This document shows, piece by piece, positions 21,093 to 63,249 of a DNA stretch of 64,000 nucleotides (position 1 is its first letter; every line of letters starts with the position of its first letter). The stretch lies in the NCBI GenBank assembly GCA_965116885.1, contig OZ220741.1, forward strand, positions 4,608,001-4,672,000, given 5' to 3'. The position numbers and the translations under genes were made by a program. This DNA comes from Candidatus Latescibacterota bacterium. GTDB taxonomy: Bacteria > Latescibacterota > UBA2968. The notes under the pieces are model-generated. The model did no database searches. It was given only the letters and a program-made list of their open reading frames with translations, and was not told the DNA's origin.

Positions 21093-21144
<52 letters not shown>

Positions 21145-21169
<25 letters not shown>

Positions 21170-21195
21170 ATTGCACCGTCTCGCTGAACTTCTGA
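21145..21195. other. Left attachment site (tRNA arm + GCTACCAA core + element arm TGCACCGTCTCGCTGAACTTCTG)
   Basis: Element arm is an imperfect inverted repeat of 62776-62799. Confidence 0.8.
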
Positions 21196-22716
21196 CCTGT
21201 CCGATTCACGACAGGAACGAAATAAAGCGAGAGAAATCTCATCAGGGGTGTAAACGAGATAGTTGATGTGGAGACTTAACAGGTCTTTCTGCTCCTCTGG
21301 TGTGGCTTCATTATATAATTCCTCAAAGGTCGTAAGTTTTTGTTGCATCTGAGCAACGCTTACGGCCTTTTGTTTTTCCTCTGATAGCGTAGCTTCATTT
21401 TCCATCATCTCCTGCTCTATTTCGCTTTTTTGCTCCTCCAGATCAATAATTTTTTGGCTGATAGTTTTTATGCCAATCTTCCTGGAGGCGAGGCTTTCCA
21501 CGAGCACATCCAGTTTCTTCTTAATATCTATAAGAAGTCTCTGATAATTCCTCTGTGTTTGCATCAGGTTTTTCATACGCTCTGAGTTCTTATTTGTCGC
21601 ATCTGCAATAAGCTCTTGGACACGTTTTTGATCTCCGCCGAGTTGAAATAGTCGGTCAATGACCACTCGTTCAAGAGCGGGTGCGGGAACATATTTCATG
21701 GCGCAAGCCCTGTCTCCGCGATGAATCTTGCTCGTGCATTGATAATAACTGTACAGCTTTTTATGACGATTTGTCGAATATACGGGCGTCATGTGAGAAG
21801 AACACCATCCACATTTTGCGAGACCTTTGAGCAAGAAGACGTGCAGGTTCTGTTTTCTGTTTCTATGCGGATCAGACCGTTTGACTTCCATGATCGCTTG
21901 CGCTTTCCGCCACAATTCGATTGGGACAATGGGTTCGTGCTGGCCCTCATAAACCTCACCTTTGAAAATAATTTTCCCGATAAAAAATTGGTTTTGCAGG
22001 ATACGCATGATGCTTGTGTTATTGAACTTCTTGCCCGCACGGACCTGACCTCTCCTGGAGACATACGATTTTGTGCGATAGCCCTTTTCATTTATCACCT
22101 GCGCTGTGGCTCGAAAACTTTGCTCTTTAACGTACGTCTCAAAAATTCTAAGCACCAATTCTCGCTCTACTTCATTCGGTTTCGGGACACCTTTTTCGTC
22201 AGGGTCAACATCATATCCGAGAATCTGTCCACCATTTGTCAGCCCCTTTTCAGCCCTCCACTGCATTTTTTCTCTCGTCCTCTCACTCGTACGCTCCCGC
22301 TCTAATTCTGCCGTCGCCAGAGAAATTGAGAGCGCAAACCGCCCCATAGCGGTTGATGTGTCAAAATTTTCATTGATTGAAATGAATATTGTTTCGTTTT
22401 CTTCCAAAAATTCATGAAGCTGGTAAAAGTCGACGATAGACCGGCTGACGCGATCAATTTTTGTGCATAACACCGCGTCAATCTTTCCCTGCTCAATGTC
22501 TCGAACCATTCGCTTGTATTCAGGGCGGTCTAAATTCTTCCCTGATTTGCCTTCTTCACGATAGATTGCAACGGCTTTCCATTCTTCCTCTGAGGATGTG
22601 GAATCCTTGAGTTCAATATACTTTTGAAGAAGATCAATTTGGGTATCCAGACTGCCGTTCTGAATCTCGGCTTGCAGGTCGGTGGAAACCCGTGCATAAA
22701 GACCACATTTAATCAC
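21148..22716 (-). CDS. Large serine recombinase, N-terminal part (integrated form, 522 aa from GTG)
   Basis: YARVST catalytic Ser, EEGKSGKNLDRPEY, DRVSR, recombinase domain, CGWC...C...C zinc ribbon, coiled coil; GGAGG RBS before GTG 22716. Confidence 0.93.
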
Positions 22717-23462
22717 ATCTACCTCCTTTGCCCTGTATTGTTTTATTTGGGAATTATATCCGATAATAACCATAGAATAGGTTACGAATATATGTCCTGT
22801 TTATTTATTATAAATATACTTAAAAACAATACTTTATGCAATATCATTATTGTATATAATCTCCTTTTATTTATTCGCGACTCCACTTCCATGAATACTG
22901 CTCATGAATGGTTTTCCAACCATCGGAGATAAATAGTTTGGCAGAGATCTCGCAAGTGAGTTGTCCGCTCTTCAGGAGATAATTGGGCATAGGGATTTTG
23001 GAGATTTGGAGGACCTTCATCTATGACCGTAACAGGGATATTGTCCCAGTCGATTTTTTGTCGTTTTGCCATGACCACACCTTTCTTATCAGGTGTGGTT
23101 TTTCCTACTCCCTGATATTGTTATTAGGGTTTTACTGCGGTTATTTTTCGAGTCTTATTTGTGTTGCACATCTTGTGTCGGGGCGTCTATTTTGATGCTT
23201 TGTTCTTGTACGACATTGACCAGCTCACCTCGTTGAATGCGCAACGTAATCGAACCCCAAAAAGAGGTGTCAAGATTCTGTAAGAGTTCTGAAATTTTTT
23301 TAATTGTTTGTGTTTTCATTTCTCGATCTCCTTCTGCCGGTTTTTATTGGCGTTTAACTTAATTCGCGTTTCTTGATATGTAGCATCCACTCGTGAGGAC
23401 TGACCCTGTCAGCGTCACTTGCCCCAGTACAGGGAATGCAGGGCATCATTGGTCTCGCCTAA

Positions 23463-26754: not shown

Positions 26755-27316
26755 GACAGCATGCTACGCTCTCTTTGAGACACCCAGCGTTTGACATTGC
26801 GTGGCGATGGGCCAAAAAAACCTGGTGCGCTTTTACGAACGCGAAGATTTGTTGGGGATCGCGTCGGTCTCCGCTGCGAACCAGGCCGCGGCTTTTGACA
26901 AGATCTCACGCTCGATGCTCAACTGCTTATTCTCGCGCCGAAGACGACGCAACTCTTCTCGCTCATCGCTGGTCAGACCGTCTTCTCGGAGTCCCTGGTC
27001 TCGATCAGCCTGGCGTATCCAGTTTTGGATCGTCTGAGCGGTCGGCTCAAACTCTTTGGCCAACTCAGAAGGACTGCGACCAGCGCGCACAAGCTCGACG
27101 ATCTGGCGCTTCAACTCGGCTGGATAAAGTGGACGTGTTGGTGGCATAGTGGGGCTCCTTTCTTACGACTCATAAGGTACCCACCAAAACGATGCTGTTG
27201 CCGAATTCCTAATTGCTGTCCCGCCGCACTAAACATAGGGTTTACAGAGCCTGTATTCAGGCCACAGACCCCCTCTCGACCAATTCGGCAACAACATCCA
27301 AAACGGGTCAAGCCCA
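26755..27316 (-). mobile_element. Truncated IS3-family element (IRL, orfA 26833-27147, start of orfB)
   Basis: orfA YPAELKRQIV...EELRRLRRENKQL..EREILSKAAAWFA; orfB start (PIATQCQTLGVS) broken; IRL TGGGCTTGACCCGTTTTG interrupted by a MITE. Confidence 0.85.
27191..27298. mobile_element. 108-bp MITE with GATGCTGTTGCCGAATT terminal IRs and 6-bp TSD (CAAAAC)
   Basis: 17-bp IRs; CAAAAC at 27185-27190 and 27299-27304. Confidence 0.85.
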
Positions 27317-30608: not shown

Positions 30609-32018
30609 ATGGGTGCGTTGAATGTTGGTAACAGGACGTTGTTTACGTGTGATAATTTGTCTGTGATGCAGGGTTTGAATAGTGAGAGTATAGACTTGAT
30701 ATATCTTGATCCGCCGTTTAACTCGAAGCGTAATTATGCAGCTCCTATTGGTTCACAAGCTGCTGGCGCGGCGTTTAAGGATACGTGGAATTTGGATGAT
30801 ATAAAACGTGAGTGGATAGAGGATATAGAGGCAGATAATAAGTCAACATGGGCGTCAATAGTATCTGCGGGTCATATAAGCGGTGAAAGCACTCAGGCAT
30901 ATTTGACATATATGGCTATTCGGTTGATAGAGATGCGTCGTATTTTGAAACCGACAGGCAGTATATATCTCCATTGTGATCCAACGGCAAGTCACTATCT
31001 GAAACTTTTGATGGATGCCATTTTTGGACAGCAAAATTTTCGATCAGAAATTACGTGGCATCGTTCTGCGGAAAATTTGTCAAACAAAAAATGGCGACGG
31101 GCTTTTGAAACGTTATTTTATTATTCAAAAGACAAATCGTGGACTTGGAATCAAATTTTTGAGCCTCTCTCTGAACAGGTATTGACGAGAGATTACCGCT
31201 TCGAGGATGAGCGGGGACGCTACAAGACGACAGCTTGCACAAACAATGCACATCGCCCGAATATGTTTTATGAGTTCAATGGCAACACTCGACAATGGCG
31301 ATATTCCAAAGAAACCATGATGAGATATGACGAGGAAGGCTTGTTGGTCTATAACCAGGACGGTATCCCTCGTCGTAAACTTTATCTTTCGGATGTTCAG
31401 GGGACAAAACTGACTAATGTATGGTCGGATATAAAAGTCTTAGCTAGTAATGCAAAAGAGAAAACGGGGTATCCCACGCAGAAGCCCCTCGCTCTTTTAG
31501 AGCGCATTATTGAAGCGTCGTCAAATCCGGGCGATGTGGTTCTCGATCCCTTCTGTGGATGTGCTACGACGTGTATTGCCGCGGAGAAACTGGAGCGACA
31601 ATGGATAGGAATAGATATAGAGCCGGAGGCGCGTAATCTTGTTATTCAGCGATTGGAGAAAGAGATTGATATAGACGCGCTATTTAAGGCGGGTGGTGGT
31701 AGTTTGCCTGATGTGGTACATAGGAAGCGACCGCCGAGGCGTACAGAGGAAGATGCGCCTCGGCGGTCGCGTAATATCAAGCAGAAGTTGTATAAGTTAC
31801 AGGGAGGTCGTTGTGCTGCGCCGTGTGGTGAGGATGGTCAGGGTCGGGAATTTCCGATAGATATATTTGAGGTTGATCATATCCGTGCGCGGAATAAGGG
31901 TGGTCCGGATATTGATGAGAATTTGCAGTTATTGTGTTCGACTTGTAATCGTAGCAAAGGGAATCGGACAATGCAGTATTTATTAGATAAATTAGGTCAA
32001 ACATCAATGGGTTTTTGA
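30609..32018 (+). CDS. N4/N6 DNA methyltransferase (beta order) fused to C-terminal HNH domain
   Basis: DLIYLDPPF, YPTQKP, VLDPFCGCATT; C-terminal EVDHI...GG...NLQLLCSTCNRSKG. Confidence 0.9.
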   Translation: MGALNVGNRTLFTCDNLSVMQGLNSESIDLIYLDPPFNSKRNYAAPIGSQAAGAAFKDTWNLDDIKREWIEDIEADNKSTWASIVSAGHISGESTQAYLTYMAIRLIEMRRILKPTGSIYLHCDPTASHYLKLLMDAIFGQQNFRSEITWHRSAENLSNKKWRRAFETLFYYSKDKSWTWNQIFEPLSEQVLTRDYRFEDERGRYKTTACTNNAHRPNMFYEFNGNTRQWRYSKETMMRYDEEGLLVYNQDGIPRRKLYLSDVQGTKLTNVWSDIKVLASNAKEKTGYPTQKPLALLERIIEASSNPGDVVLDPFCGCATTCIAAEKLERQWIGIDIEPEARNLVIQRLEKEIDIDALFKAGGGSLPDVVHRKRPPRRTEEDAPRRSRNIKQKLYKLQGGRCAAPCGEDGQGREFPIDIFEVDHIRARNKGGPDIDENLQLLCSTCNRSKGNRTMQYLLDKLGQTSMGF

Positions 32019-44901: not shown

Positions 44902-47900
44902 TCAGTTATCTACCCGCTTTAGATTCAGGATGACAGGCTCAGCTGGCCTGGCATTAGGGTGCGTTATGATGGTACAGTTAAGTGGAATCAGCCCTTCAGA
45001 TCCTATCGCAAGTTTGGGAGACGGCAGGGTGTACGCATCTGCCTGCGTGACATCAACGCGGTAGCCTATATCGGCGAGCGATTGGATCGTGATCGCGCTG
45101 ATTACAACAACTCTACCGTGTGTGGGTGTCATGAGTTCGTTGCCGAATACGGACTGCCGCCAGTGAGAATCCTGGCCCCCTACAAATGTGTTCTCCACCG
45201 GCACTTTCGCACCCGTGTAGCCCGATCCACCAGCACTATTGAAAGCCGCGATCGCTTTTGGTCCTGAGAAATACGTGTCGGGCAGGGGAACAACGCGCCC
45301 GCTATATAAGTTCGTCGGGTTCTGTAGCCGATTGTAAGCATCTTCTCTCCACGGTCTAACGCCGAATCCCAGCGCGTGCCCCATCTCGTGCAGAATAACG
45401 TCTCCCAATCTTGTAATATCCAGGTCGTCCTGGTCAAGCTCTATTCGGGATGCGAACGGCAGGACGGACGGAACGCGAAAGAGTACCGTGCTCGCACGGC
45501 CGAGCACTTTTCCATCTCCGTCAATTGGAACGGCTGACACATAGATCACCAGATCATCGACAACTTCGGGGGCAGTGGTTCCCGGGTAACGCTGGTTCAA
45601 TTCATATTGATCGTTACTGGACAACTTATGGTTGGGGATGTCGTGCGTGATGATCTGCTCCCAACGCTCGGCAGCGGTTTCAAATGCCGTCTTCACCGTC
45701 TCAGAAATGTTGCCGACAAAGACAAAATCGATATCGAAGGAAGACGTTCCATCCTTCGTCGCTTCGGCAGTTGCGGAGCGAAGGCCCGTTAAGCTGCCGC
45801 TACAATCCGTACCGAGATATCCGTAATCAGCCTCATAAGTGGTGCCCGGCTCGAAGAAGTTGGAGGCTGAGAAAGTTGACGATGTCGTAATATCCTGGGC
45901 AGAATCCTCCGCATTCGTGAAGGTGCTGCACGCCTCGGCCCACTGGCCGATATTCGTCTTGTGCCGGATTCTGAACTGGTAAGCCCGGTCTTCATTGGCC
46001 GCGAAGTTATCGGTGAATCCGAGCGTGAAGCTATCGCCGCTGATGCTCAGGGTGGGAGCCGATAAGGTCGGCGTCTGGATAGTCGCGTTGAAGTTTGTTG
46101 AGGCGGTCGCACCCCAGGGATCCGTCGCGGTTACGGTAATGGTCGCAGTGCCAGCGGATAGTGGATCAATCAGGACATATCTACCGATCATCTCTACGGT
46201 CGCGGCGGTACTGTTATTTGACGATGCCGTATATCGCAGGCGGGAATCGTCGGGATCGCTGAACACATGATCTGTTGTAAACAACCACTGGCGCTGGGTA
46301 GCACCACCCGCTGGAATCGTCACATCTTCGATGCTGCTTAAGACAGTCGGTGAGGCGTTGGAAATCGTCACCTCCGCCGAACGAGACCACGCGCCCTCTC
46401 CTTCGTCGTTATTCGCCCGCACCTGCACCTCATGGCGGATGTTCCTCACCACGATTTTTGTGATCGTTGCACTCGTGCCGGGGCCCATATGCGACCAGGG
46501 CATAAAGCTACTGCTGCCCGCCCGATATTGTATGTCATAGTCATTGATGTCGGGACCGGTGTTGGTCGGCTCGGTCCAGCTCACGATCAGATTTTTTTTA
46601 TAGCCAAGAGCGTCACCCGCCTCAATTTCAACCTGCGGCGCAGACGGCGCCCTGGGCGGTTCGTTCACATCGGTCAAATGGATTGTCACATCAATGAAGG
46701 CATTGCCGCCACGACCGTCGTCTGCTTCCACAGTCACCACATAGCGGTCCAAATCCTCGTAATTGTATGTGACGCCCGATCGGGTGCGAAGTTGACCGTT
46801 GCTTGAGTTGATGGTGAATGAACCGGCATCAGATCCGCTGAGGCGATAGATCAGGCGGTCACGGTTGGGATCGGTGGCACTGACCGGATGCTGGATATTT
46901 CGATTGGATGCCGTGTTCTCAGCCACGCTGCGGGAGGTGCTCGCACCGTCGTCGAAGGTCGGATCCCGGTTAGGACCCGGTGGTGGCGGTGGTGGCGGTG
47001 GCGGCGGTGGTGGTTGTGGTGGCGGTGGTGGCGGTCTCGGACCACCGCCTCCCCCTCCACCCCCTCCTCCTCCCGACGGCACAGAGGTGCTCCACTCGCT
47101 CGACTCAGACCATTCACTCGTGCCTTCCTCGTTCGTCGCTCGAACCCGGATGTCGTACTCTGTATTTTGCGAGAGATCAGTCAAACGCATCGACTTTTTC
47201 GTGTCGTCATATACCACACTGGTAATCTCATATTCCGCATCAATGAACGCATCACTATCGGCTTGTCGGTATTGCACATCGTAGTCCGTGATTTCAGGTC
47301 CCGTGTTTACAGGCTCGGTCCAGATCACGGTCAGGCTCGTCGGAGCAATTGCCGAGACACTCGGTGGAGCAGGCTGCATAGGCGGTTCGTCGATGTCATT
47401 GATGGTAATACCTACAGCAAGACTCGCCTCACCACCTTCGCCATCACTGACATCGACAGTGATGGAATACGTATCCTTTTGCTCAAAGTTATATGTGCCT
47501 TTTGTCTGAATTTGTCCTGTGCTCTCGTCTATGGCAAAACTGTCTGCATCAGCACCACTGAGGCGATAGGTCAGCGTATGGCCTTCAGCGTCACTGGCTG
47601 TGATAGGATCACCAATGGCCTGTCCAGGTGCGGTATTCTCATCTATGGAGAGTGCCACAGGAGGCTCAGACGGGAAGGTGGGTGCGCGGTTGACCACTTT
47701 GCCGAAGCTATCGAAGAAGAGCAGAAAATCGGGTATCCCAATCTCGCCATCCACATTCAGATCGTATTTGGCCTCATAAGTATCTTGACCTCTTCGAGAA
47801 CCAAACACATCGACAAAGAGCAAGAAGTCGGGGATCTCAACTGTTCCATTCCTGTCAAAGTCCGGAGAAGGCGGTTTGGCAAGCTGCAAGGTAGCACTCA

Positions 47901-48417
47901 GATCCAGCGATACAGTCTCGGTCTGTCCCCCTCGCACGAGTCTTGCACGCACCAGCAGTATATCTGTACCCGAAAATGCCTCTGTTGTGAGAAAGTGAAT
48001 TGCGCCGATAAGACCGCTGCCTGGACTGTTAGCCGATAGGGTTATCCCGATATTTGCAACGTCCTTGCCTGTAAGTGCAGAGGTGCCAGACACGATATTG
48101 GATCTCTTAAATGCTTCGTAAGCAACCTGAGATGGATCAAATTCAAAGCGCAGGAAGAGATCGCTCGCATCCCCAATATCTGCACCGAAGATTTGAATGG
48201 CAGCTGTGCGATTGGGTAAGACATCGAGGGAGGCGATGGATTGATCGCCTTCGGAATTATCTAAATCGAGAGAGAGGGAAAAGCTGCTGGTCTGGGTGGA
48301 TAGCGACCGCGGGAATAGCAAGAATAAAAGGCTTAGCAGGCTGACAGTACTGAGTGCGAGAGGGAAAAGTTTAACAGCGGATTTAAGCATTTGTTTTAAA
48401 TTGAAAAACATATACAT
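44902..48417 (-). CDS. Large secreted protein: cohesin-like, EF-hand/dockerin-like pair, 2x(cadherin+FN3), Gly/Pro linker, M8 (leishmanolysin-like) metalloprotease
   Basis: DFDRNGTVEIPDFLLF; NRAPTF..SIDEN; VQYR..VRATNEEG; HEMGHALG...SHWR...ELMT. Confidence 0.85.
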   Translation of the reverse strand: MYMFFNLKQMLKSAVKLFPLALSTVSLLSLLFLLFPRSLSTQTSSFSLSLDLDNSEGDQSIASLDVLPNRTAAIQIFGADIGDASDLFLRFEFDPSQVAYEAFKRSNIVSGTSALTGKDVANIGITLSANSPGSGLIGAIHFLTTEAFSGTDILLVRARLVRGGQTETVSLDLSATLQLAKPPSPDFDRNGTVEIPDFLLFVDVFGSRRGQDTYEAKYDLNVDGEIGIPDFLLFFDSFGKVVNRAPTFPSEPPVALSIDENTAPGQAIGDPITASDAEGHTLTYRLSGADADSFAIDESTGQIQTKGTYNFEQKDTYSITVDVSDGEGGEASLAVGITINDIDEPPMQPAPPSVSAIAPTSLTVIWTEPVNTGPEITDYDVQYRQADSDAFIDAEYEITSVVYDDTKKSMRLTDLSQNTEYDIRVRATNEEGTSEWSESSEWSTSVPSGGGGGGGGGGGPRPPPPPPQPPPPPPPPPPPPGPNRDPTFDDGASTSRSVAENTASNRNIQHPVSATDPNRDRLIYRLSGSDAGSFTINSSNGQLRTRSGVTYNYEDLDRYVVTVEADDGRGGNAFIDVTIHLTDVNEPPRAPSAPQVEIEAGDALGYKKNLIVSWTEPTNTGPDINDYDIQYRAGSSSFMPWSHMGPGTSATITKIVVRNIRHEVQVRANNDEGEGAWSRSAEVTISNASPTVLSSIEDVTIPAGGATQRQWLFTTDHVFSDPDDSRLRYTASSNNSTAATVEMIGRYVLIDPLSAGTATITVTATDPWGATASTNFNATIQTPTLSAPTLSISGDSFTLGFTDNFAANEDRAYQFRIRHKTNIGQWAEACSTFTNAEDSAQDITTSSTFSASNFFEPGTTYEADYGYLGTDCSGSLTGLRSATAEATKDGTSSFDIDFVFVGNISETVKTAFETAAERWEQIITHDIPNHKLSSNDQYELNQRYPGTTAPEVVDDLVIYVSAVPIDGDGKVLGRASTVLFRVPSVLPFASRIELDQDDLDITRLGDVILHEMGHALGFGVRPWREDAYNRLQNPTNLYSGRVVPLPDTYFSGPKAIAAFNSAGGSGYTGAKVPVENTFVGGQDSHWRQSVFGNELMTPTHGRVVVISAITIQSLADIGYRVDVTQADAYTLPSPKLAIGSEGLIPLNCTIITHPNARPAEPVILNLKRVDN

Positions 48418-48475
48418 ACCCCGAGTTGTGACGTAAAAGATTGCAAAATGTCCATACAACTTGAGTTATGTATAT

Positions 48476-48490
48476 GCAAAAATCGTGCCA
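48476..48490 (-). promoter_or_regulatory. Sigma-54 -24/-12 promoter for the surface protease gene
   Basis: TGGCACGATTTTTGC on the minus strand. Confidence 0.85.
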
Positions 48491-48872
48491 GTTTGTAATA
48501 AACGAGCTAATTCCTTGCGGATGAAGGAGTTGAAGCATATTCGGGATGATTCAGAGATTTTTGAAATGTCGCAGAATAATACACAAAAACCACAAGGAAT
48601 CGCATATACGTTGCGTTATATGTGATATAAATATTTATTTGTGAATAATTTATATGGAAAATAGAGGTGGGATATAGCGGGTGTGTTGCAACTTCGATAC
48701 ATGTCGCATTTTACAACACATCTGACAAATGCGCCCTCATCCGGGGGACCGGTTTAAGAGGTTACAGGCAGCAGAAGGCGGTGCATCGCAACTGGAGACA
48801 AAGACTGGCTTGTGGCTCGGATGGCAAAAGTACGGCATTCGACCAGATCTCAGTCCTGATCGTCTGTGCAGT

Positions 48873-50684
48873 TCAATCCCTGGCGATGGCGATGTCGTAT
48901 TTTTTTAACTTCCGGTACAGAGTCGCCCGATTAATACCCAACGCCTGGGCGGCCTGAGCAATGTTGTTGCCCGTGGCCTCGATCGCGTGGATCAGGGCCT
49001 GACGCTCGATCTCGGTCAATGGCAGGATCGCCTGTGGTGCCGAGAGGTCTCTTACCAAAGCAACGGCTGGCGATAGCTGAGACGGCAGATTATCTGCTTG
49101 CAGCACCCCGGTCGTCTCTAACAGCACAGCGCGCGCTATGGCGTTTTCCAGTTCTCGCACATTGCCCGGCCAATCGTACTGTAGCAACAGGCGCAGGACA
49201 AGGGTGGAAATGTCGCTTATGGATTTGCCGGCCTGGGCAGTGTATTTCTCGAGAAAATGCCTGGCCAATAGGGAAATATCTTCATGCCGATCTCTCAGTG
49301 GTGGAATCGTGATGGGGAAGGCAGCGATGCGATAGAACAGATCCTGGCGGAACGTGCCCTCTTTTACTGCACGCTCCAGGTCCTTGTTGGTCGCCGTTAT
49401 CACGCGGATGTCGATAGAAATGGGAGCTGTTCCTCCAATCCGCTGGATTACCCGCTCCTGCAAGACGCGCAACAGCTTGCCTTGCATGACATACGGCATG
49501 TCGCCGATCTCGTCGATAAAGAGCGTGCCGCCATTGGCGCGCTCGAAGGCCCCGATTCTCTGCTTCGTGGCTCCTGTGAAAGCCCCTCGTTCATGTCCGA
49601 ACAACTCGCTTTCGATGAGTGTTTCGGGAATGGCGGCGCAATCGAGGGCCACGAACGGCTCATCCTTGCGTGGGCTGTTGGCGTGCAATAAGTTGGCGAC
49701 CAATTCCTTGCCGGTGCCGCTCTCGCCGCAAATGAGTACCGTGATATCGCTTTCGGCGGCCTGCTGCATCAGCTCGTACACCTGCTGCATTACGGAGCTG
49801 GTGCCGATCAGGTCGGGAAATAAACTGATCGTCTCCAACTCGTTGCGCAAGTGATGCAACTCGGCTTTCATCTGCTCGGTCTCAATGGATAACTTTTTTT
49901 CTGTGGTGATGTCGCGGAAGACGAGCACGGCACCTTTCAAAATACCTTCCCTTCCTCGCAAGGGTCTGCCGCTGAGGCTGACATAAATGCCTTCGGGCTT
50001 CTGTGCGTTGCGTATGAATAGCTCAATATCGTCAGTGGCCTTGCCCTTCAGAGCAAGCATCAGTGGACTCTCCTCCACGGTGAAGAACGTCTTTCTATCG
50101 GATTTAAAAATACCGTATTTTTCGATCCATTTGTAGATATCCTGATCCAGCGGAGAGTCGTCGTCCATCCACTGCGCGCTCAAATTATTAAAAAGTGGCA
50201 CGCCATTTTCATCAAAGGCGACCACACCCTCCCTCATGCTGTTGAATACGGTTTTCATGAGTCGGGTGAGATCTTTGTATTTGTTGATTATTCGCTTCAA
50301 CCTGCTTTTCGTCTCGTGCATCTCAAGGGCAGTCAGGATATTCAGGTTGAGTTGTCGCTCCTCAAACGGCCTCAGCACATAGCCGAAGGGGTTGGCTGCC
50401 TGCGCTTGTTGCAACAGGTCTCCCTCAGCTTCGTCAGTCAGATATAACACGGGAACGTCGAACCGGTTGCCGATCTGCTCGGCTACTTCCGGACCGGTGA
50501 TCTCCCCTTCGAGACAGAGATTAACCAGGGCCAGGTCTGGATGCGTGTCCGCGGCTTTTTCAATGGCTTGATGCCCGCACGAAACTGTGGCACACACCAT
50601 GTATCCCAGGTTTTTCAGGCATTCTTCAAGGTGTGTGGCACCGGAGGCATTGTCTTCGACAATCATTATCTTTGTGTCGGTCAT
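48873..50684 (-). CDS. Sigma-54 enhancer-binding protein (receiver-like, PAS-like, AAA+, Fis HTH)
   Basis: [34 protein letters not shown]-terminal HTH. Confidence 0.93.
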
Positions 50685-51014
50685 ACTGTTCGCGTCCTGT
50701 TAGGGTGATTTTTTTGTACTTTTTACACACTTTTACAGTTTGATACCCAAATAGGTCCAGATTTAGGATCAACCCATCATTTTTGTTGTAAAATGCGACA
50801 TGTGTTGAAATTGCAACACATTCTCTACTTCCTATCTCCGGTTTTTCCATAAATCACTTATAAACATATGTTTGTTACATATCCTAAATACAGTGAATAT
50901 GCATTTTCATGTGGTTTTCAGCGTCGCATTCTGCAACATTCCAAAAATCTCTGAATCATTCTGACTATACCCTAACTCCTTCATCTACAAGGAATTAGCT
51001 CGTTTGTTACAAAC

Positions 51015-51029
51015 TGGCACGGTTTTTGC
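51015..51029 (+). promoter_or_regulatory. Sigma-54 -24/-12 promoter for the LRR/FG-GAP gene
   Basis: TGGCACGGTTTTTGC. Confidence 0.85.
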
Positions 51030-51278
51030 CTTTGTACAGACGAGAGAATATGGGAATCATATACTAAAGTGTCAAGATCAGAACAATATACTTGTCATTG
51101 AGAATTTATAATCGCATAAGCGGAAAAAACTGCGGGTGGACCCGGTGGTGATAATAACAGGGACCAAATACCGGGTATAGTCCATACCAGGTAAAAGTAG
51201 ATATAGTCACACACATCCGACTTATGCGAAACGATTTGTCATTTTGCATAATACTCATATAAAAAAGAAAGGTGTCGT

Positions 51279-53417
51279 ATGAAGCGTTTTTGTATTGTGC
51301 TTGTGGTCATTACAAGCTGTCTATGGACCTGGCTACCTCTGGCGCATACATCACAAGTAAGACCTGTGCCGGACTTTGATCAAAACGGCACTGTGGATAT
51401 TTCAGACTTTTTGCTCTTTGTCGGCAAATTTGGTTCAAAACAAGGCGATGAGACGTATGAAGACCGATTCGATCTGGATGGCAATGGCACGGTTGACATT
51501 TCAGACTTTCTGATCTTCGTCAAGGATTTTGGCAAAGCATCTCCTGAAAGTGGTGATGAAAACGACGTGAATATACCAGATGCCAACCTGCGTGCTGTAA
51601 TAGCAGACAGCCTTGGCAAAGGGCGAGATGAGGCCATCACACGGGCAGAGATGGCGAGCCTGACGCACCTTGAGGCACAGGGGGCGAACATCAGCGATTT
51701 GACCGGGTTGCAGTTTGCTACCAATCTGACATACCTGTGGCTTACTGGCAACCAACTAACAGACCTCTCTGCGTTGTGTGACTTGACCGACCTGACAGAT
51801 CTGGTTCTTTTTTCAAACACAATAACAGATATATCCGCGCTATCTAACCTGACAAATTTGGGACACCTGAATCTTGCTGGCAATGGCCTCTCCGATATAT
51901 CCACGCTGTCTAACTTAATAAACTTGGAATGGCTGTTCCTTGCCGACAACACAATAACAGATATCTCTGCCCTATCTGATCTGATCAATTTGACAGGGCT
52001 GGATATTAGCAATGCCACCATTACAGATATCTCTGCCCTGGCTAACTTGATCAACCTGACAAACCTGGGACTTAACGATAACTGTGTATCAGACCTCTCT
52101 GCACTGTCTAACTTGACAAATCTGACATATCTGAATCTCAGCGGCAATAGAATCACAGACCTTTCGCCATTAGTGACAAATACGGGATTGGGTAGTGGCG
52201 ACGAGGTCGATGTGCGGAAAAATCCATTAAGTGCCGAATCGCTCAACAGACACATACTTACCATTCAGAGCACAGGCGTTAAGATACAATTCGACGACCA
52301 GTTCGTATTGGGATGCGTCCCCATACTTCCAAAGAATCTTTCCGTAGATACAGGAAGTTCTCACACTCTACAGGCCAATTCTCTGTATGTTGATCATGAG
52401 ATAATAAGACGCGGAGGTAGTGCTGGCGTGGTGTATGCCGATTTTAACAGAGACGGTCATATTGACATTTTTTATGCACCAGGCGGAGGTTCAGCAGAGC
52501 CTACTCCCGCAGAATTGTATCTTAATGATGGCGCAGGATGTTTCTCCCTCGACACCAATTTCTTTAATGGAAATCCACCGGGTTTGGTGCATCCGAGAAA
52601 GGCTTTGCCGGGAGATTTTAACGGGGACGGGAAAATGGACATCTTCGCGTTGGGTCACGGGTACGACGCCCCACCCTTTCCGGGCGAAGCACCTTATGTC
52701 ATTCTTTCGTCAGGTGACGGCTTCGTATTGGGCAAAGGGTTAGACACACTTATTGGATATCATCACGGCGGCGCATCAGCCGATATTGACAAGGATGGAG
52801 ATATAGATGTATTTGTCACTAATTCACCCTTCGGCACGCCATTCTTTCTTATTAACGACGGCACGGGATCATTTACAATAGATATAAACCGGACTGAGGG
52901 CCTTGTGCATAGACAGCTATATACCGCTGAATTGGTTGATGTCGATACCGACGGGTTTCTCGACTTGTTAGTTGCGGGTCACGAATACGATCCCATGCCC
53001 GGAGACGAAATGCCGACGCAAATCCTGTGGGGTGATAGCACAGGTATATTTAGTACAGCTAAGGCGACAGTTCTTCCGGATATTATTGGTCACGGCACTG
53101 TTGTTGACATTGACGTAAGCGATACAGATGAGGACGGAGATAAAGATATTGTCGTCAACCGAACCTCCGATTCCGCTGTGGGTAACGACTGGTATAAGGG
53201 ATATTATTTGCAATTAGTTGAACAAAAAGCCCCGCGCAGGTTCGAGGACAAAACTGCGCAGTCAATTTTCAAAAACGAAGATGCCAATGCGGATTGGATC
53301 ACCTGGATCCGAATGTGTGATTGCAATGGCGATGGACATGTAGATATCGTGGTTGACGATGCCGGCAGAAACTTGATCTGGGAGAATGACGGAACCGGCA
53401 CATTTAGGCCACGCTGA
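51279..53417 (+). CDS. Secreted EF-hand/dockerin-like + internalin-type LRR + FG-GAP/VCBS repeat protein
   Basis: 22-aa LRRs (LTNLTYLNLSGNRITDLSPL); ADFNRDGHIDIF, GDFNGDGKMDIF, ADIDKDGDIDVF. Confidence 0.9.
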   Translation: MKRFCIVLVVITSCLWTWLPLAHTSQVRPVPDFDQNGTVDISDFLLFVGKFGSKQGDETYEDRFDLDGNGTVDISDFLIFVKDFGKASPESGDENDVNIPDANLRAVIADSLGKGRDEAITRAEMASLTHLEAQGANISDLTGLQFATNLTYLWLTGNQLTDLSALCDLTDLTDLVLFSNTITDISALSNLTNLGHLNLAGNGLSDISTLSNLINLEWLFLADNTITDISALSDLINLTGLDISNATITDISALANLINLTNLGLNDNCVSDLSALSNLTNLTYLNLSGNRITDLSPLVTNTGLGSGDEVDVRKNPLSAESLNRHILTIQSTGVKIQFDDQFVLGCVPILPKNLSVDTGSSHTLQANSLYVDHEIIRRGGSAGVVYADFNRDGHIDIFYAPGGGSAEPTPAELYLNDGAGCFSLDTNFFNGNPPGLVHPRKALPGDFNGDGKMDIFALGHGYDAPPFPGEAPYVILSSGDGFVLGKGLDTLIGYHHGGASADIDKDGDIDVFVTNSPFGTPFFLINDGTGSFTIDINRTEGLVHRQLYTAELVDVDTDGFLDLLVAGHEYDPMPGDEMPTQILWGDSTGIFSTAKATVLPDIIGHGTVVDIDVSDTDEDGDKDIVVNRTSDSAVGNDWYKGYYLQLVEQKAPRRFEDKTAQSIFKNEDANADWITWIRMCDCNGDGHVDIVVDDAGRNLIWENDGTGTFRPR

Positions 53418-53622: not shown

Positions 53623-53967
53623 AATTTTTTTTTGTTACTACTTCTGGAGTGCTTTATTGCACTCCAGCACCATCCTACATATCCCCTTAAGTAAGGTAAC
53701 AAAGAACACACCATTGAGGGTCTTCTTGGTATGCTGGAGATTCGCTTTGGTGAGCAATGCGCCCCTCCTATCTAACTGCATTGCCGCTATCAACGATGTG
53801 CAACACCTGAAGCAGTTGCATCGTTGCGATACAAGTTCCGGCATGATCACACACTGGGATAGAAAGACTTGCCGCATGCCTTGTCGCCCCTCAATCTGCT
53901 ATGTATATTTATTGATTTACGCAGATTATGCAGATGCCTGTCAAGCTCGGCAAAGGAAGGGAGTGAT

Positions 53968-54720
53968 ATGTTCTACAACGAACTGATCAAACAAATAGAT
54001 TCCATGCCTTACACACATCGGAGGATGTTGTTTAGAGGGGAACCCCAGAAGTTTAAGCACGTATCTTCGGGATTCTACAGGATGCGCGAGAAGGCAGATC
54101 CTCGCTGGGCTGAATATTCTGCCCAAGAAAGAGAGGAGGATATGAAAATATGTGAAGGGCACGCAGTATCAGGTGCTGGCGTATTTGAGGGGGTGGATGC
54201 AGAAAGGCAATATGAATTGTTCGCTACATTTATGGAGGGCAACCCTCTTGAGCAGGTGCCTGAAAAGTCGTGGGAGACGCTAGGAAAAATAAGGCAGGCA
54301 GGTGGAAAAACTAATTTTATAGATTTTTCAAGGGATGTGAATATTGCCATATATTTTGCATGTTCGGATATTGCAGGCCTTCCCATAAGCTGCGGCAAAT
54401 CTCGTCACGATGGGCGCATTGTGATATATCGCCCATTGACAATCCCTGGAAAGCACCCAATCATGGAATTCCCTCATGCCGGATATAGCAAGTACCAAAG
54501 TAGTGTTTTTGTTCGGCCAAGAGAGGGCGGATCTATCCCTCTTGATGAAGATGTATTGGCTATTCCGGTGCCAAAGGAAGAGAAGCTGTCTCTTTTGAGC
54601 CATCTCGATGTTTATTGCAATGTAAGGCCAAGTACGGTATATCCAGACCTTGGGGGCTACGTTAGGAACGAGGGCCTGATTTTCCCCACCAAAGAAGAGA
54701 TAAATGCCAAATATAAATAA
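53968..54720 (+). CDS. FRG domain protein
   Basis: LFRGE; QAGGKTNFIDFSRDVNIAIYFAC; QSSVF; VYPDLGG. Confidence 0.8.
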   Translation: MFYNELIKQIDSMPYTHRRMLFRGEPQKFKHVSSGFYRMREKADPRWAEYSAQEREEDMKICEGHAVSGAGVFEGVDAERQYELFATFMEGNPLEQVPEKSWETLGKIRQAGGKTNFIDFSRDVNIAIYFACSDIAGLPISCGKSRHDGRIVIYRPLTIPGKHPIMEFPHAGYSKYQSSVFVRPREGGSIPLDEDVLAIPVPKEEKLSLLSHLDVYCNVRPSTVYPDLGGYVRNEGLIFPTKEEINAKYK

Positions 54721-54836
54721 CTGCACGATCTTCGAAGCGGACAACCTCGATATCCTGCGCGGGGTCCATTCGGAAAGAATCGACCTCATCTACCTAGACC
54801 CCGCCATTCAAGTCTGACAGGAACTATGCGCCGCCT
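54719..54836 (+). pseudogene. DNA methyltransferase N-terminal relic
   Basis: TIFEADNLDILRG..SERIDLIYLD, then frameshift, then PPFKSDRNYAPP; resembles the start of 30609-32018. Confidence 0.75.
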
Positions 54837-54950
54837 GACGATCACCGCAAGGCCACAACATTTTTATGAATTTATGCTACTCTGTGCAGTTAAAAATGCC
54901 TATGTTCTGCCGATTATTTTAGACAATGAAGAAAGAAAGGATGCCACTGG

Positions 54951-55709
54951 ATGTTCAAAAGAATTGTTGGATGCCTATTGCTTGTTATGGCAACAGCCGA
55001 TATTGCAGAAGCTGTTGACGGCGATCTTGACTTAGATGGGGATGTAGATTTTCAAGACTTTTTAATTTTAGTACAAAATTTCGGAAAGGAAGGCCCTCCT
55101 TCTCCAGCACGTACTGATACCATTTATGTGACGAAAATAGATACCGTATTTACTACCATCAGAGACACTATATATGTCTCGAAAGTGGACACGTTTTATA
55201 TCGAGACAGGTGCGCCTGTCATTCCCTATGACCGTGACCTGTACAAGCATTGGATTGATGCTGATGGGGACTGTCAGGACACAAGACAGGAAGTTTTAAT
55301 ATCTGAAAGTCTGCAACCAGTCGTTCTCGACGACCGGGGATGCCGGGTCGTATCGGGAGAATGGTTGGATTTGTACACGGGACAGACTTTTACTGATCCG
55401 AGTAGATTGGACATAGACCACTTTATTCCGCTGTCTGAAGCCCATCGAAGTGGCGCAGATACCTGGACGCCGGAACAAAGGCAAGCATTCGCCAATGATT
55501 TGACGAATGAACATTCTTTAATTGCTGTGTCTGCCTCAGCAAACCGATCTAAAGGAGATCGAGACCCCGCAAACTGGTTGCCACCGAATGAGGCTTTTCA
55601 GTGCGAGTATATAAAACGGTGGGTGGCCGTGAAGGAGTATTTCAACTTAAGGATGGATGCAACAGAAAGAAATTTTTTGCAAAATCATCCATGTTTGCAG
55701 AATGATTAA
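54951..55709 (+). CDS. Secreted DUF1524/HNH-type nuclease with N-terminal EF-hand-like motif
   Basis: DLDLDGDVDFQDFL; LDIDHFIPLSEAH...NRSKGD..PANWLP. Confidence 0.85.
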   Translation: MFKRIVGCLLLVMATADIAEAVDGDLDLDGDVDFQDFLILVQNFGKEGPPSPARTDTIYVTKIDTVFTTIRDTIYVSKVDTFYIETGAPVIPYDRDLYKHWIDADGDCQDTRQEVLISESLQPVVLDDRGCRVVSGEWLDLYTGQTFTDPSRLDIDHFIPLSEAHRSGADTWTPEQRQAFANDLTNEHSLIAVSASANRSKGDRDPANWLPPNEAFQCEYIKRWVAVKEYFNLRMDATERNFLQNHPCLQND

Positions 55710-56031
55710 ATTCTAAAAAACCTCGAGTACAATACAAAAGCCCGCTGATCGCTACAGATTGACGGGCTTTTGCCTATGCTTGGTGGGAATTATATACGAA
55801 AGTGCCGAAGCAGCACAGTGAGAATAGCTACTCTAAAAATAGGTGGCAAAACACAAAAATGCAAGGGGGAAGACGTAAGGAAAATACTGCTCGACAAGGT
55901 TGCCCAGATTTGTTAAAATAAGTTTAACATTGTTTAACAGAAAGGAGAAGGGGGTTAATGGAGACTTTAGTCTTTTCTGAGATACTGAATGGTTGCTGTA
56001 GAATATGCCAATTAGAGGATGAATACTATTC

Positions 56032-56150
56032 TGGAGTTACCCCGCTTTCGTGGATAATGTAGGAGGTTCATCCTAATCATTCTGCGCCATCAGTTTCTCA
56101 TAGGTGATGGGTAATTGTGAAATGTTATACATCAAATCGGATCAAGTCCA
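56032..56150. mobile_element. 119-bp miniature IS3 derivative
   Basis: TGGAGTTACCCCGCTTT...AAATCGGATCAAGTCCA; TG...CA ends. Confidence 0.8.
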
Positions 56151-56161
56151 GGGTCAATATG

Positions 56162-56818
56162 CTATTCATTATCAGATAAGCAAGGGTGAGTTTGTAAAAA
56201 ACGTATCTCTGCGGTATCCATATCTAAATCCCAATAATTCTTTATTGCAATCCAACGGTTGATATATTCACAATGGAATGACTTATTAGGCGGTAGCCAA
56301 TTTGCAATATCTTTATCACGCTTAGAACGATTGGCAGACGCAGATACAGCGATTAAAGCATGCTTATTTACCAAATCATTTGAAAATAAACGTCTCTTAG
56401 CCGAAGTCCAAAGATTAGCACCGCTTCGGTGGGCTTCTGCTAACGGTATAAAATGGTCTATATCTAATTTCCCAGGGTCTGTAAAAACTTGACCAGTATA
56501 TAAATCTAACCACTTGCCAGATAGAACTTTACAACCCTTACTGTCGAGAACAACTGGTTCTAAACTTTCAGCTATTAAAACCTCTTGCCTTGTATTCTGG
56601 CAATCCCCATCAGCATCAATCCAGTAACCGTAAAGACTTCTGCTGTAAGTATTCGATTTTGTTGATTTATCAGAACTTTTACTTTTAGAACCACTATGAT
56701 AATGATACTCTCCAGTCTTACGATTCGTATGACCGCCATTACTGTCAGTCCTCCCACTATGACCGTAAGCCAACGTAGAACCAAAGAGTATTGTAGCCAA
56801 TACAAATAACTTATACAT
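56162..56818 (-). CDS. Secreted YHYH + DUF1524/HNH-type nuclease
   Basis: HSGRTDSNGGH...GEYHYH; LDIDHFIPLAEAH...NRSK. Confidence 0.85.
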   Translation of the reverse strand: MYKLFVLATILFGSTLAYGHSGRTDSNGGHTNRKTGEYHYHSGSKSKSSDKSTKSNTYSRSLYGYWIDADGDCQNTRQEVLIAESLEPVVLDSKGCKVLSGKWLDLYTGQVFTDPGKLDIDHFIPLAEAHRSGANLWTSAKRRLFSNDLVNKHALIAVSASANRSKRDKDIANWLPPNKSFHCEYINRWIAIKNYWDLDMDTAEIRFLQTHPCLSDNE

Positions 56819-57347
56819 AAACCAAATTCTCCAATTAAACGAGTTAAGATGAAACTTCATAGTAATATATATCATAGAGATTGCCGTCGAATCTAAACTT
56901 ACAAATTAGATCGCAAAGACGGCGAATTTCAAACGGCACATCGTAGATGGTTATGGTATTTACGTCATTGCGCTCCCACTTCAATCCCTCCATAGATTTC
57001 ATATGTTCCTCAACCTCACTTATTGCCATCCCCGTCTTTAATTTGAAGGGATATTTTTCTGGTGGTAAAATCATAGGTGTTTCCTCCAGTGTTCAGGCGT
57101 TAAAAAAAGTTGCTCAATTTTGTATATAATACCAATATTTTCCATAATTTATGGAAATAAAAATTAATTTTATTGTTAAATCAGCTCGAATTTTGAACGG
57201 TTAAAACGGGTCAGAGCTAATACGCTCTAACTCCCGAAGTGCCCTCTGATTCCATCCAGGTACCAATGGCTAAGCCTTTTAAATGGACTTATACGGGCAA
57301 ACCTCTGAAAGTATAAACCGATGGAATACTTCTGCCAAACAGCACTA

Positions 57348-58284
57348 GGTAGTGTCTGAAAAGTCGTAAAGTATGTATTTTAGTTGCAGCATACGCCGAA
57401 AAGAAAGGAGTATGATATGCAACGGAGATACGAACTGAGCGACGAGGAATGGCATCTGATCCAAGACTTATTCCCACCGCCGCAGAAGATGGGTCGTCCC
57501 CGTCGGGATGATCGTACATTATTCAACGGGGTCTTCTGGATATTGTGTTCAGGTGCAGCTTGGCGCGATCTGCCAGAACGCTATGGTCCTTGGCAGACAG
57601 CCTTTGACCGATTCTGCAAATGGAAGCAGGATGGCACCTTTGATCGCATTGTAGAAAAGCTGCATCTCAAATTGGATGAAGATGGCCTTTTAGATTATGC
57701 GACCTGGATGATGGATGCAACCCATATTCGAGCCACACAAGCCGCGGCAGGAGCGAAAAAAAAAGGGTAAAGAGGGTGAAGCAGAACCCCCAGATCACGC
57801 TTTAGGACGCTCTCGTGGCGGTTTGACCACGAAAATCCATCTTCTTTGCGATGCAGTCGGGCATCCTTTAGCAGTGGACCTGCTCCCTGGCAACCAGTCA
57901 GAATCCACACAGGCTGAAAGGCTGTTATCAAAGGTACGCATACCCACCAAACAAGGGCGTCCAAGAAACCGACCTCAGTATCTGGTGGCTGATAAGTCTT
58001 ATGATGTCTCACGCATCAGAGGCTATCTACGCAAACGGGGTATCAAGGCTGCTATCCCAAACAAGGCGATTCCTAAAGGCAGAAAACGGCGTAAGAGAGG
58101 ACCAAGGCCAACGTGTGATAAAAGATTATATGCCAAACGCAATATCGTCGAGCGTCTCTTTGGCTGGCTCAAACACTGCCGACGGATTGTGACCCGGTTT
58201 GAAAAAAAGGCGACTCATTTTCTCACTATGGTCAAGCTGGCATGTATCAGACAACTCTTCAAAGCTTACTTTTCAGACACTACC
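57348..58284 (+). mobile_element. IS5-family element, two-ORF transposase (57417-57770 and ~57756-58287)
   Basis: 17-bp perfect IR GGTAGTGTCTGAAAAGT in CTAG/TA target context; WRDLPERYGPW, GRSRGGLTTKIH, ADKSYD, RNIVERLF. Confidence 0.93.
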
Positions 58285-58313
58285 TAGCAAAAATATTTCT
58301 TTTAGTTCAAGAG

Positions 58314-62330: not shown

Positions 62331-62804
62331 TCAGCTATCAAGTCCTGATAGTACGCCCCTCTCATAGCAGGCACTTTGACCTGGATATTGCTCCTTGATC
62401 ATTTGCCAAAACTTCCTTCTTTGTCTCTCCTCGCTCTTAACTTGGAATAACGACTGCAACCGATAGACAGTCAGGAAATCCAGTCTTGGATCTGAGTCAT
62501 CTATCTTCAAGATAAAGTCTTTAATTTTCTCATCCAGTTCGAGCAACTGTAAAATCAAGCGGGTTTTCGTTCTCGAAATGCCCACCTGCTTTGCAAGTGC
62601 TGTCTGAGATTGAACATAGCCCTTATCAAGAAGCTCGTGATAATACAAAGCTCTTTTGAGATAATTGGGATGGTGCAGTTTTTGAGTGACCACTTGTTTT
62701 TGTGGCTTATGACCGATAGCGATTATAGGCTTCTGGTTCCTGCGGAAGTGGTGGATGGGGAAGTGATCCCACACACAGAAACGTTCAGTGAATGGTGCAG
62801 ACGG
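62331..62804 (-). CDS. Detached C-terminal part of the serine recombinase, int(C), with HTH
   Basis: Reading frame open up to the att core; ALYYHELLDKGYVQSQTALAKQVGISRTKTRLILQLL; in frame with int(N) across GCTACCAA. Confidence 0.75.
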   Translation of the reverse strand, partial: PSAPFTERFCVWDHFPIHHFRRNQKPIIAIGHKPQKQVVTQKLHHPNYLKRALYYHELLDKGYVQSQTALAKQVGISRTKTRLILQLLELDEKIKDFILKIDDSDPRLDFLTVYRLQSLFQVKSEERQRRKFWQMIKEQYPGQSACYERGVLSGLDS

Positions 62805-62826
62805 GCTACCAAAAAATAAGGGAACC
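62776..62826. other. Right attachment site (element arm CAGAAACGTTCAGTGAATGGTGCA + GCTACCAA core + host arm)
   Basis: Inverted similarity to 21172-21194; core identical to 21163-21170. Confidence 0.8.
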
Positions 62827-62850
62827 GAAATTTTCGGTTCCCTTTTATTT
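62814..62850. terminator. Bidirectional intrinsic terminator, probably the original tRNA-fMet terminator
   Basis: AAGGGAACCGAAA-T-TTTCGGTTCCCTT followed by TTATTT, immediately after the ...GCTACCA core. Confidence 0.85.
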
Positions 62851-62871: not shown

Positions 62872-63249
62872 TCAGGCATCGAGCAAGGATCGAAACGCAG
62901 CTTTGAAATTGTGTGGTGCGCTCCGCCAGAGTTGAATCCCCTCAATAATATCATCGGTTTCCGATTTGAATATCGGCTGCAATGCTTTCCTCAGTTCGGC
63001 GACCTGTATTGTTTCCTGGCCGGTTTTTTGATCCGCCAACAAATCTTCGACACTTCTGCCCAACACATCTGCAATTTTTGCCAACACGGGAATTGATCCG
63101 CGCTGCTTGCCCTTTCGAATATCGCTAAAATAGGGCGCACTAATCCCAACCATTTTGGCGATCTCCTGGCCCTGTAAACCCGATTCGCGTTGCCAGCGCT
63201 GAATCTTCTCACCCGCTATTTGTTTATCATAAAGCTCCCGCCTTGTCAT
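62872..63249 (-). CDS. XRE-family HTH regulator
   Basis: GLQGQEIAKMVGISAPYFSDIRKGK...LAKIADVLG. Confidence 0.85.
   Translation of the reverse strand: MTRRELYDKQIAGEKIQRWQRESGLQGQEIAKMVGISAPYFSDIRKGKQRGSIPVLAKIADVLGRSVEDLLADQKTGQETIQVAELRKALQPIFKSETDDIIEGIQLWRSAPHNFKAAFRSLLDA

Follow-up and report, generated by a model that had tools for sequence, protein, structure and literature searches.

In a stretch of 64,000 nucleotides from the genome of a Candidatus Latescibacterota bacterium (contig OZ220741.1; hereafter the window, and its genome G000), a 41.6-kb element is integrated at the 3' end of an initiator-type tRNA gene, and the attP site of this element lies within the reading frame of its own large serine recombinase (LSR), such that integration splits a 694-aa gene. 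We consider it probable that the element was inserted here by this LSR, which would read the T-loop of the tRNA in attB and a CTGAAC motif in attP, exchange strands at nucleotides C71-T72 of the tRNA, and divide its own gene in the process. A preliminary description of this DNA had already recognised the island, its attB, the LSR and the arms of attP, all of which stand; what it missed was the location of attP inside the LSR gene. The relevant features, in their order along the window, are the following:

21093..21169, plus strand: tRNA-Met(CAT), initiator-type, called by ARAGORN; the left (B) arm of attB and attL
21145..21149, plus strand: T-loop GGTTC, whose outward reading is GAACC at positions 15-19 of the B arm; proposed zinc-ribbon motif of attB
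21148..22773, minus strand: 541-aa open reading frame (522 aa in the database call), a large serine recombinase by its Pfam domains
21163..21170, unstranded: attL copy of the 8-bp common core GCTACCAA; the proposed crossover dinucleotide C21164-T21165 is tRNA nt 71-72
21166..21189, unstranded: P' arm of attP, with TGCACC at 21172-21177 (arm positions 7-12) and CTGAAC at 21184-21189 (19-24), within the last LSR codons
21171..62812, unstranded: integrated element, 41.6 kb, with borders from congener empty sites and the core repeat
62331..62774, minus strand: 147-aa open reading frame with a ParB/Noc/KorB-type HTH (Pfam HTH_ParB), the detached C-terminal part of the LSR
62783..62805, unstranded: P arm of attP, with GTTCAG at 62783-62788 (CTGAAC at 18-23), GGTGCA at 62794-62799 (TGCACC at 7-12) and a GGG end
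62805..62812, unstranded: attR copy of the common core, matching the attL copy
62808..62842, unstranded: B' arm of attB, an A-run followed by a terminator hairpin at 62820-62842 whose stem contains GAACC at 62822-62826 (15-19)
62872..63249, minus strand: XRE-family HTH gene (Pfam HTH_31/HTH_3), the chromosomal right flank

ARAGORN finds a single tRNA in the window, the tRNA-Met(CAT) at 21093-21169, and two further tRNA-Met(CAT) genes are present elsewhere in G000. The tRNA in the window has a C1/U72 mismatch and GGG/CCC in the anticodon stem, which we take to be features of an initiator (fMet) tRNA, and its 3' end is identical in all 12 relatives whose junctions were read. Directly 3' of its CCA lies the 3' end of the minus-strand LSR gene, the frame of which continues in antisense over the final 22 bases of the tRNA (21148-21169), so that the final residues and stop codon of the integrated LSR are supplied by the chromosome and differ with each tRNA target. 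The repeat GCTACCAA at 21163-21170 and 62805-62812 marks both ends of the island and extends over 8 bp only, in agreement with the earlier statement that the tRNA stays intact without a long 3' duplication.

The island borders are corroborated by natural empty sites. We searched 40 related genomes, including 20 of the same genus (congeners), with the left flank of the island and, separately, with the right flank. In eight of the 20 congeners (G002, G005, G008, G011, G014, G015, G017, G020) the tRNA directly abuts the hairpin at 62820 and the XRE flank, which is the arrangement the preliminary description had expected of relatives lacking the island. Seven of these eight empty sites were read as sequence: the G015 junction is exactly the rebuilt attB, those of G017, G002, G020, G014 and G005 are attB with one extra A in the A-run, and that of G008 is attB with one G in the A-run. 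Because the flanks abut in these natural empty sites, both the 41.6-kb size of the island and the rebuilt attB are real. Five further congeners carry other inserts at the same insertion point, of about 32 kb (G006), 7.2 kb (G019), 5.7 kb (G012), 2.4 kb (G013) and 2.0 kb (G004). The flanks of G001, G003 and G009 differ by 25-735 bp and have a different terminator, the left and right flanks of G007 are on separate contigs, and the right flank is located elsewhere in G010 and G018. The right (XRE) flank was found in all 20 congeners, in G016 only partly.

Two minor observations concern this insertion point. The 2.4-kb insert of G013 (loci L041/L003) opens with a 62%-identical LSR C-terminal fragment, with a P' arm that has no CTGAAC; at the fMet site it represents either a diverged lineage or a variant with a deletion. 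A near-identical terminator hairpin (stem GCCCGTC, or GCCTGTC and ACCCGTC in two cases, then AATCG) follows different tRNAs in different genomes, namely tRNA-fMet at L005, L007, L009 and L011, tRNA-Met at G000:C1:1105117 and tRNA-Asn at L151; in four congeners it stands at the fMet site in place of the GGGAACC hairpin. Such a terminator may be a cassette that moves or is spread by gene conversion.

The 541-aa product is an LSR, as previously proposed, because it contains Resolvase (PF00239, 1.8e-35, residues 25-177), Recombinase (PF07508, 1.7e-14) and Zn_ribbon_recom (PF13408, 3.1e-14) domains; the catalytic R-V-S motif is invariant across an alignment of LSR homologues (A1). A protein search of 41 related genomes located matches at 20 places in 13 of them, seven of which are full-length with 51-100% identity. 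Each of these seven ends within a tRNA 3' end, the tRNAs being fMet, elongator Met, Gln-TTG, Gln-CTG (two cases), Asn and Glu-CTC, and most of the 13 fragments adjoin tRNAs; G000 itself has remnants of the family at tRNA-Gln-TTG and tRNA-Asn. A wider profile scan across phyla, with one genome per species, yielded 80 loci in Latescibacterota, Omnitrophota, Planctomycetota, Hydrogenedentota, Myxococcota, Nitrospirota and others. The LSR stop codon falls in or beside the 3' end of a convergent tRNA at 45 of the 72 evaluable loci, with tRNA-Asn as target in 33 and Glu, Gln, Ser, Met or Asp in the remainder. Judged from these sequences, the LSR is a member of a widespread clade residing at tRNA 3' ends, close relatives of which use at least six different tRNAs.

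Joining the ends of the island yields an attP of 49 bp from GTTCAG to CTGAAC. The inner motif TGCACC occupies positions 7-12 on both arms, and the outer CTGAAC forms an inverted repeat at positions 18-23 (left) and 19-24 (right), with GAAC at 20-23 and 21-24; these are to the base the attP motif positions given in the preliminary description. The outer repeat extends to a 9-mer that is identical at 8 of 9 positions between the arms with a 1-bp offset (15-23 on the left arm, 16-24 on the right). Across 15 family junctions CTGAAC occurs at the same distance from CCA (19-24) in 11, with one mismatch in two and not at all in two, and attP positions 1-12 vary with the target tRNA. The far ends of the relatives' elements were searched for the mirrored motif and a tRNA tail, which located attR sites in G006, G014 (two elements) and G020, each laid out as GTTCAG, a 5-bp spacer, a variable hexamer and a GGG arm end before tRNA nt 71-72. 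For the tRNA-Glu element of G036, neither motif search nor inspection around the HTH homologue revealed a convincing P arm at attR. Three sites of 49 bp that join both arms to a tRNA-Asn core without interruption occur naturally in G015, G007 and G020, and a viral contig (L163), which alone of 57 viral-contig matches is a close relative, bears within the 3' end of its LSR gene (545 aa, 47% identical) a free attP with a tRNA-Asn tail. The attP of the window is thus not an artefact of reconstruction, given these natural uninterrupted sites and the free attP of the viral contig.

Several further arrangements of these arms were noted at other tRNA genes. About 40 bp of LSR 3' end (a P' arm with CTGAAT or CTGAAC), followed by a terminator, persists after tRNA-Asn in G000 (G000:C1:3321156, outside the window) and several congeners (L150, L152, L155-L157, L159, L161, L162); these fossils are minimal scars of lost elements. 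In the tRNA-Asn array of G020 (L055-L057) there are two joins of a P arm with a P' arm, about 22.3 kb and 48.5 kb out, which are attP-like hybrid sites between tandem elements, with a further P' arm after the second. At the attR sites of G014 (L050, L053) the next sequence is not native flank, instead a T-run and a piece resembling the LSR interior (compare 21329-21350 of the window), and older truncated copies appear to lie behind both current G014 elements. Words sampled from the attL region were nearly all found in two sequencing runs and at a level of about 0.2-0.4 in many sponge metagenome runs, counts that carry no inference as to habitat, empty sites or excision.

In attB, GAACC is found at 21145-21149 (on the complement, within the tRNA) and at 62822-62826 (within the terminator), both at 15-19 from the CT, which bears out to the base the motif positions given earlier. 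The T-loop GAACC lies at 15-19 of the tRNA arm in every tRNA used by the family, 5-6 bp inward of the attP GAAC, and because tRNA structure fixes the distance between T-loop and acceptor end, every tRNA offers this half-site. The preliminary description had placed the zinc-ribbon motif about 5 bp further out in attP than in attB, and the outer motif does indeed lie 5-6 bp beyond the T-loop GAACC; by comparison, passages of Rutherford et al. 2013 (PMC3783163) give the zinc-ribbon motif of the LI integrase at 16-24 in attP and 11-19 in attB, a shift of about 5 bp. The idea of a T-loop half-site is well supported by this sequence comparison. The terminator arm is another matter: its GAACC is displaced to 16-20, 1 bp further out, in six of the seven empty sites read, and GAAC at 14-19 is absent from the non-tRNA arm at the unoccupied Met, Gln-CTG and Glu-CTC sites of G000 and the Asn site of G004. 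Given the 16-20 position in six of seven sites and its absence at these four other tRNAs, the terminator-arm GAACC may be coincidental or specific to this member, and its role as a half-site motif appears doubtful. No sequence resembling the inner attP motif was seen in attB. Of the symmetric serine-integrase geometry first proposed for both sites, attP and the tRNA arm of attB stand, and the terminator arm, a single 5-mer with the shift and absences just described in a site whose overall symmetry is 6 of 24, is doubtful.

The position of the crossover was approached through symmetry, scored over ungapped 24-bp arms at 11 trial centres, with 200,000 random genome positions as background. The attP of the window scores 10 of 24 about CT, the best of the 11 centres and a score reached or exceeded by 5.4% of random positions; the site is better than this figure suggests, since the 1-bp offset keeps the outer 9-mer out of the count. 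The three natural tRNA-Asn attP sites score 11, 11 and 9 of 24 about GA, the best centre in each. About CT, attB scores 6 of 24, equal to the random expectation, so its symmetry consists only of the 5-bp GAACC run. Nucleotides 71-72 of the tRNA fall within every core and are non-palindromic in each target (CT, CA, GA); the neighbouring TA of tRNA-fMet is palindromic. Taking these sites together, CT is the best-supported candidate for the centre, and we hold a crossover at CT to be moderately probable.

The explanation that best survives alongside this one accepts the island and LSR as described, places strand exchange at another dinucleotide of the core (AC, CC, CA or AA), and takes the matching GAACC arms of attB as coincidental. 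Any non-palindromic dinucleotide in GCTACCAA fits the junctions, CC in the G000 attP comes second with 9 of 24 against 10 of 24 for CT, the symmetry of attB is at chance, and the terminator-arm motif is not general. However, nt 71-72 is the top symmetry centre in four of four attP sites and the runner-up changes from site to site, the invariant GGG of the P arm mirrors the CC of CCA about nt 71-72 only, and the identity between attP and tRNA begins at nt 70 in both fMet and Asn, as would be expected if everything 3' of nt 71-72 had to be resupplied by the element. Exchange at one of these other dinucleotides seems to us unlikely, if still a serious contender.

A less probable alternative holds that CTGAAC/GTTCAG is conserved through coding constraint on the LSR linker, in which the motifs supply V-Q-R and T-E codons, rather than as DNA-binding sites, and that its likeness to the T-loop is accidental. 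Both motifs do fall in the coding sequence of one continuous frame, and V-Q-R belongs to the consensus of A1, an alignment whose members are 40-77% identical to the first sequence. Yet the V-Q-R codons that spell the motif are without synonymous-site variation among close relatives, in which the flanking codons vary, and in 17 of 41 arms of more distant members GAAC is retained at an unchanged distance (position 20 or 21) but falls in another reading frame and encodes other residues; all 41 arms have a purine at position 21. Coding constraint would furthermore leave the inverted repeat about the core unexplained. We regard it as improbable; the CTGAAC motif appears instead to be constrained at the level of DNA.

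No stop interrupts the frame of the 147-aa HTH gene as far as the core at 62812, and across the rebuilt attP this frame continues that of the LSR in phase; when the island ends are joined by their coordinates a single open frame of 694 aa results, consisting of the LSR and the HTH gene. Since attP lies within the LSR frame, the free element would encode an LSR of 694 aa that has a ParB-type HTH at its C-terminus. The same open frame crosses attP in both elements of G014 (706 and 684 aa) and in the inner copy of G020 (690 aa); in the outer G020 copy it is broken after 75 residues, and G006 retains an LSR fragment only. Translated in the joined frame, the common core gives a G-(S/C)-P linker, which means that a change of tRNA target changes those codons. 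The 541-aa product of the integrated state keeps all recognised LSR domains. The detached part matches HTH_ParB (PF17762) with 26.3 bits (cut-off 22.6; 8.4e-06), its AlphaFold model has a pLDDT of 87.6, and the first 14 PDB fold matches listed for that model are all Noc, ParB or Spo0J, with a best E-value of 3.8e-3 and none at or below 1e-3.

Unsplit LSR proteins that also carry HTH_ParB are represented by P0038 (658 aa), P0077 (666 aa) and the 820-aa frame of L120; P0038 and P0077 are two among the 120 LSR homologues listed, and residues 535-656 of P0038 align to the HTH gene of the window with an E-value of 6e-26. The locus L077 was considered as that of P0077 and rejected, as it encodes a 545-aa LSR without the HTH. 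Of 158 HMMER homologues of the HTH gene, the 150 listed include no fused form and are all 58-317 aa long, and a word-based search retrieved no longer protein containing the HTH gene. The viral contig L163, which displays the unintegrated gene order, has a separate 148-aa HTH gene (25% identical to that of the window) downstream of its free attP. Fusion of the two parts is rare and lineage-specific, since the listed HTH homologues are unfused, the search among longer proteins gave none, and the HTH of the viral contig is in a separate frame; the rule that holds generally is that attP separates the LSR core from an HTH module.

We hypothesize the following mechanism. The element's own LSR would insert the 41.6-kb element into the one initiator tRNA gene, at its 3' end, through recombination between an attP that is an imperfect palindrome of about 49 bp, with inner TGCACC-type motifs at 7-12 and outer TC-R-CTGAAC at about 16-24, and an attB comprising the tRNA from its T-arm to CCA together with about 20 bp of A-run and terminator. 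The zinc-ribbon domain would read CTGAAC in attP and, in attB, the near-universal GAACC of the T-loop, 5-6 bp closer to the centre. With strand exchange at the non-palindromic C71-T72, only A73-CCA of the tRNA would be supplied by the element. Integration would leave the 541-aa LSR at attL and the HTH gene at attR.

The closest enzymatic parallel is the Listeria A118/LI integrase, which in passages of PMC3783163 likewise combines Resolvase, Recombinase and zinc-ribbon domains with an attP of about 50 bp and a shorter attB. Its outer motif, at about 16-24 in attP, recurs in attB some 5 bp nearer the centre, which is matched here by attP and one arm of attB, and its 2-bp central dinucleotide would correspond to the proposed CT. 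Unlike that system, which targets a protein-coding gene, the Latescibacterota element targets the 3' end of a tRNA, one of its attB half-sites is a near-universal tRNA feature, attP and attB share no inner motif, and attP is inside the integrase gene (compared with the same passages of PMC3783163). [quoted passage not shown] In its choice of target the island instead resembles the Islander/TIGER class of tyrosine-integrase islands, in which the tRNA 3' end is likewise the target and the displaced end is resupplied (parts of PMC12884075, PMC12424338 and PMC8092301). The enzyme families are unrelated, however, and the resupplied piece here is at most 8 bp and without arm sites, against cores of 25-76 bp for tyrosine systems at tRNAs (sections of PMC8092301).

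Gene organisation offers a second set of parallels. In archaeal SSV-type tyrosine recombinases attP is located in the integrase gene, which is split to opposite prophage ends at a tRNA 3' end (PMC8371274), and RAP44-like Riemerella phages similarly have attP in an int gene that is split at a tRNA 3' end, these also being tyrosine recombinases, from which only 43 bp are split off (passages of PMC12169736). The likeness is one of gene organisation only, the LSR being a serine recombinase (compare PMC8371274 and passages of PMC12169736), and in contrast to those enzymes as described in part of PMC12169736 it retains every catalytic and DNA-binding domain and gives up a distinct ParB-type HTH domain of about 150 aa. 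In the open-access literature we found no account of a serine integrase clade targeting tRNA 3' ends, nor of an attP within an LSR's own reading frame; att-site catalogues and supplements may hold cases of either. In well-known systems of integration-dependent immunity in mycobacteriophages the integrase is a tyrosine recombinase. There too attP is inside a gene and integration alters the C-terminus of its protein, with the difference that the gene concerned is the repressor, here the serine integrase itself (sections of PMC8092301).

It is tempting to speculate further that the clade uses the T-loop as a fixed half-site anchor, retargets by changing a few central attP bases, which are also the G-(S/C)-P codons, and has in the split gene a switch responsive to integration state. 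Integration would strip the ParB-type domain from the LSR and excision would restore it, providing a built-in directionality or regulatory switch that requires no separate factor. LSRs recombine attP with attB independently of host factors, and their excision requires a directionality factor, none of which was identified here. We offer this combined reading tentatively and think it less likely than not to hold in full. If true, an integrase that is cut by its own integration and so loses a DNA-binding domain would represent a new coupling of recombinase activity to integration state.

Insertion of large DNA is done mainly with serine integrases, whose retargeting is an open engineering problem. 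The family described here amounts to a natural series of close enzymes (73-78% identical) that have moved among at least six tRNA genes, with the outer attP motifs and one attB half-site constant across the series, which narrows the DNA positions that set specificity and, by comparison, the protein residues. Their targets, the 3' ends of tRNAs, are conserved landing sites present in every genome. It is also important to note that the repeats of tRNA-linked islands can be no longer than 8 bp, and that methods relying on a displaced tRNA fragment may overlook such islands.

Forty-four open reading frames of the island were scanned with Pfam and PHROGs (the latter on 27 of them). The recognised cargo comprises an N6/N4 DNA methylase-HNH fusion, a replication initiator, RadC, a Rad52/Erf-like annealing protein, a sigma-54 activator, a 1185-aa fn3/cadherin/M8-peptidase protein, an LRR/FG-GAP protein, an FRG protein, two GmrSD_C proteins, a Fic protein, an IS3 fragment and an IS5 copy. 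No virion or phage structural, conjugation or transfer, or tyrosine-integrase genes were recognised among the 44 by Pfam and PHROGs. A prophage identity was rejected, with PHROGs matches to only two of the 27 (the replication initiator and the annealing protein), and we refer to the island simply as an integrative element. That some other recombinase inserted the island, or that it is a fixed remnant, with the LSR a passenger, is very improbable: a mosaic island in which IS copies occur and neither transfer nor virion genes were recognised, and the many relatives at tRNA sites that are decayed fragments, would suit such a history, but no tyrosine integrase was seen in the 44 frames scanned, the end of the LSR gene coincides with the junction here as in 45 of 72 loci elsewhere, and the 8-bp core is short, as reported for serine integrases in sections of PMC8092301.

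Some of the cargo is grouped. The FRG gene and the two GmrSD_C genes stand side by side at 53869-56875, and these, with the methylase-HNH fusion at 30609-32018, are possible defence cargo. The region 44902-53417, with local GC up to 0.55, encodes the 1185-aa fn3/cadherin/PKD protein with its M8 (leishmanolysin-like) peptidase, a sigma-54 response regulator and a 712-aa dockerin/LRR/FG-GAP protein. An IS4/IS5-type transposase occupies 57384-58287 in two overlapping frames (DUF4096, then DDE_Tnp_1), and a lone IS3-type HTH_Tnp_1 reading frame is found at 26833-27147; both are IS copies or fragments within the island.
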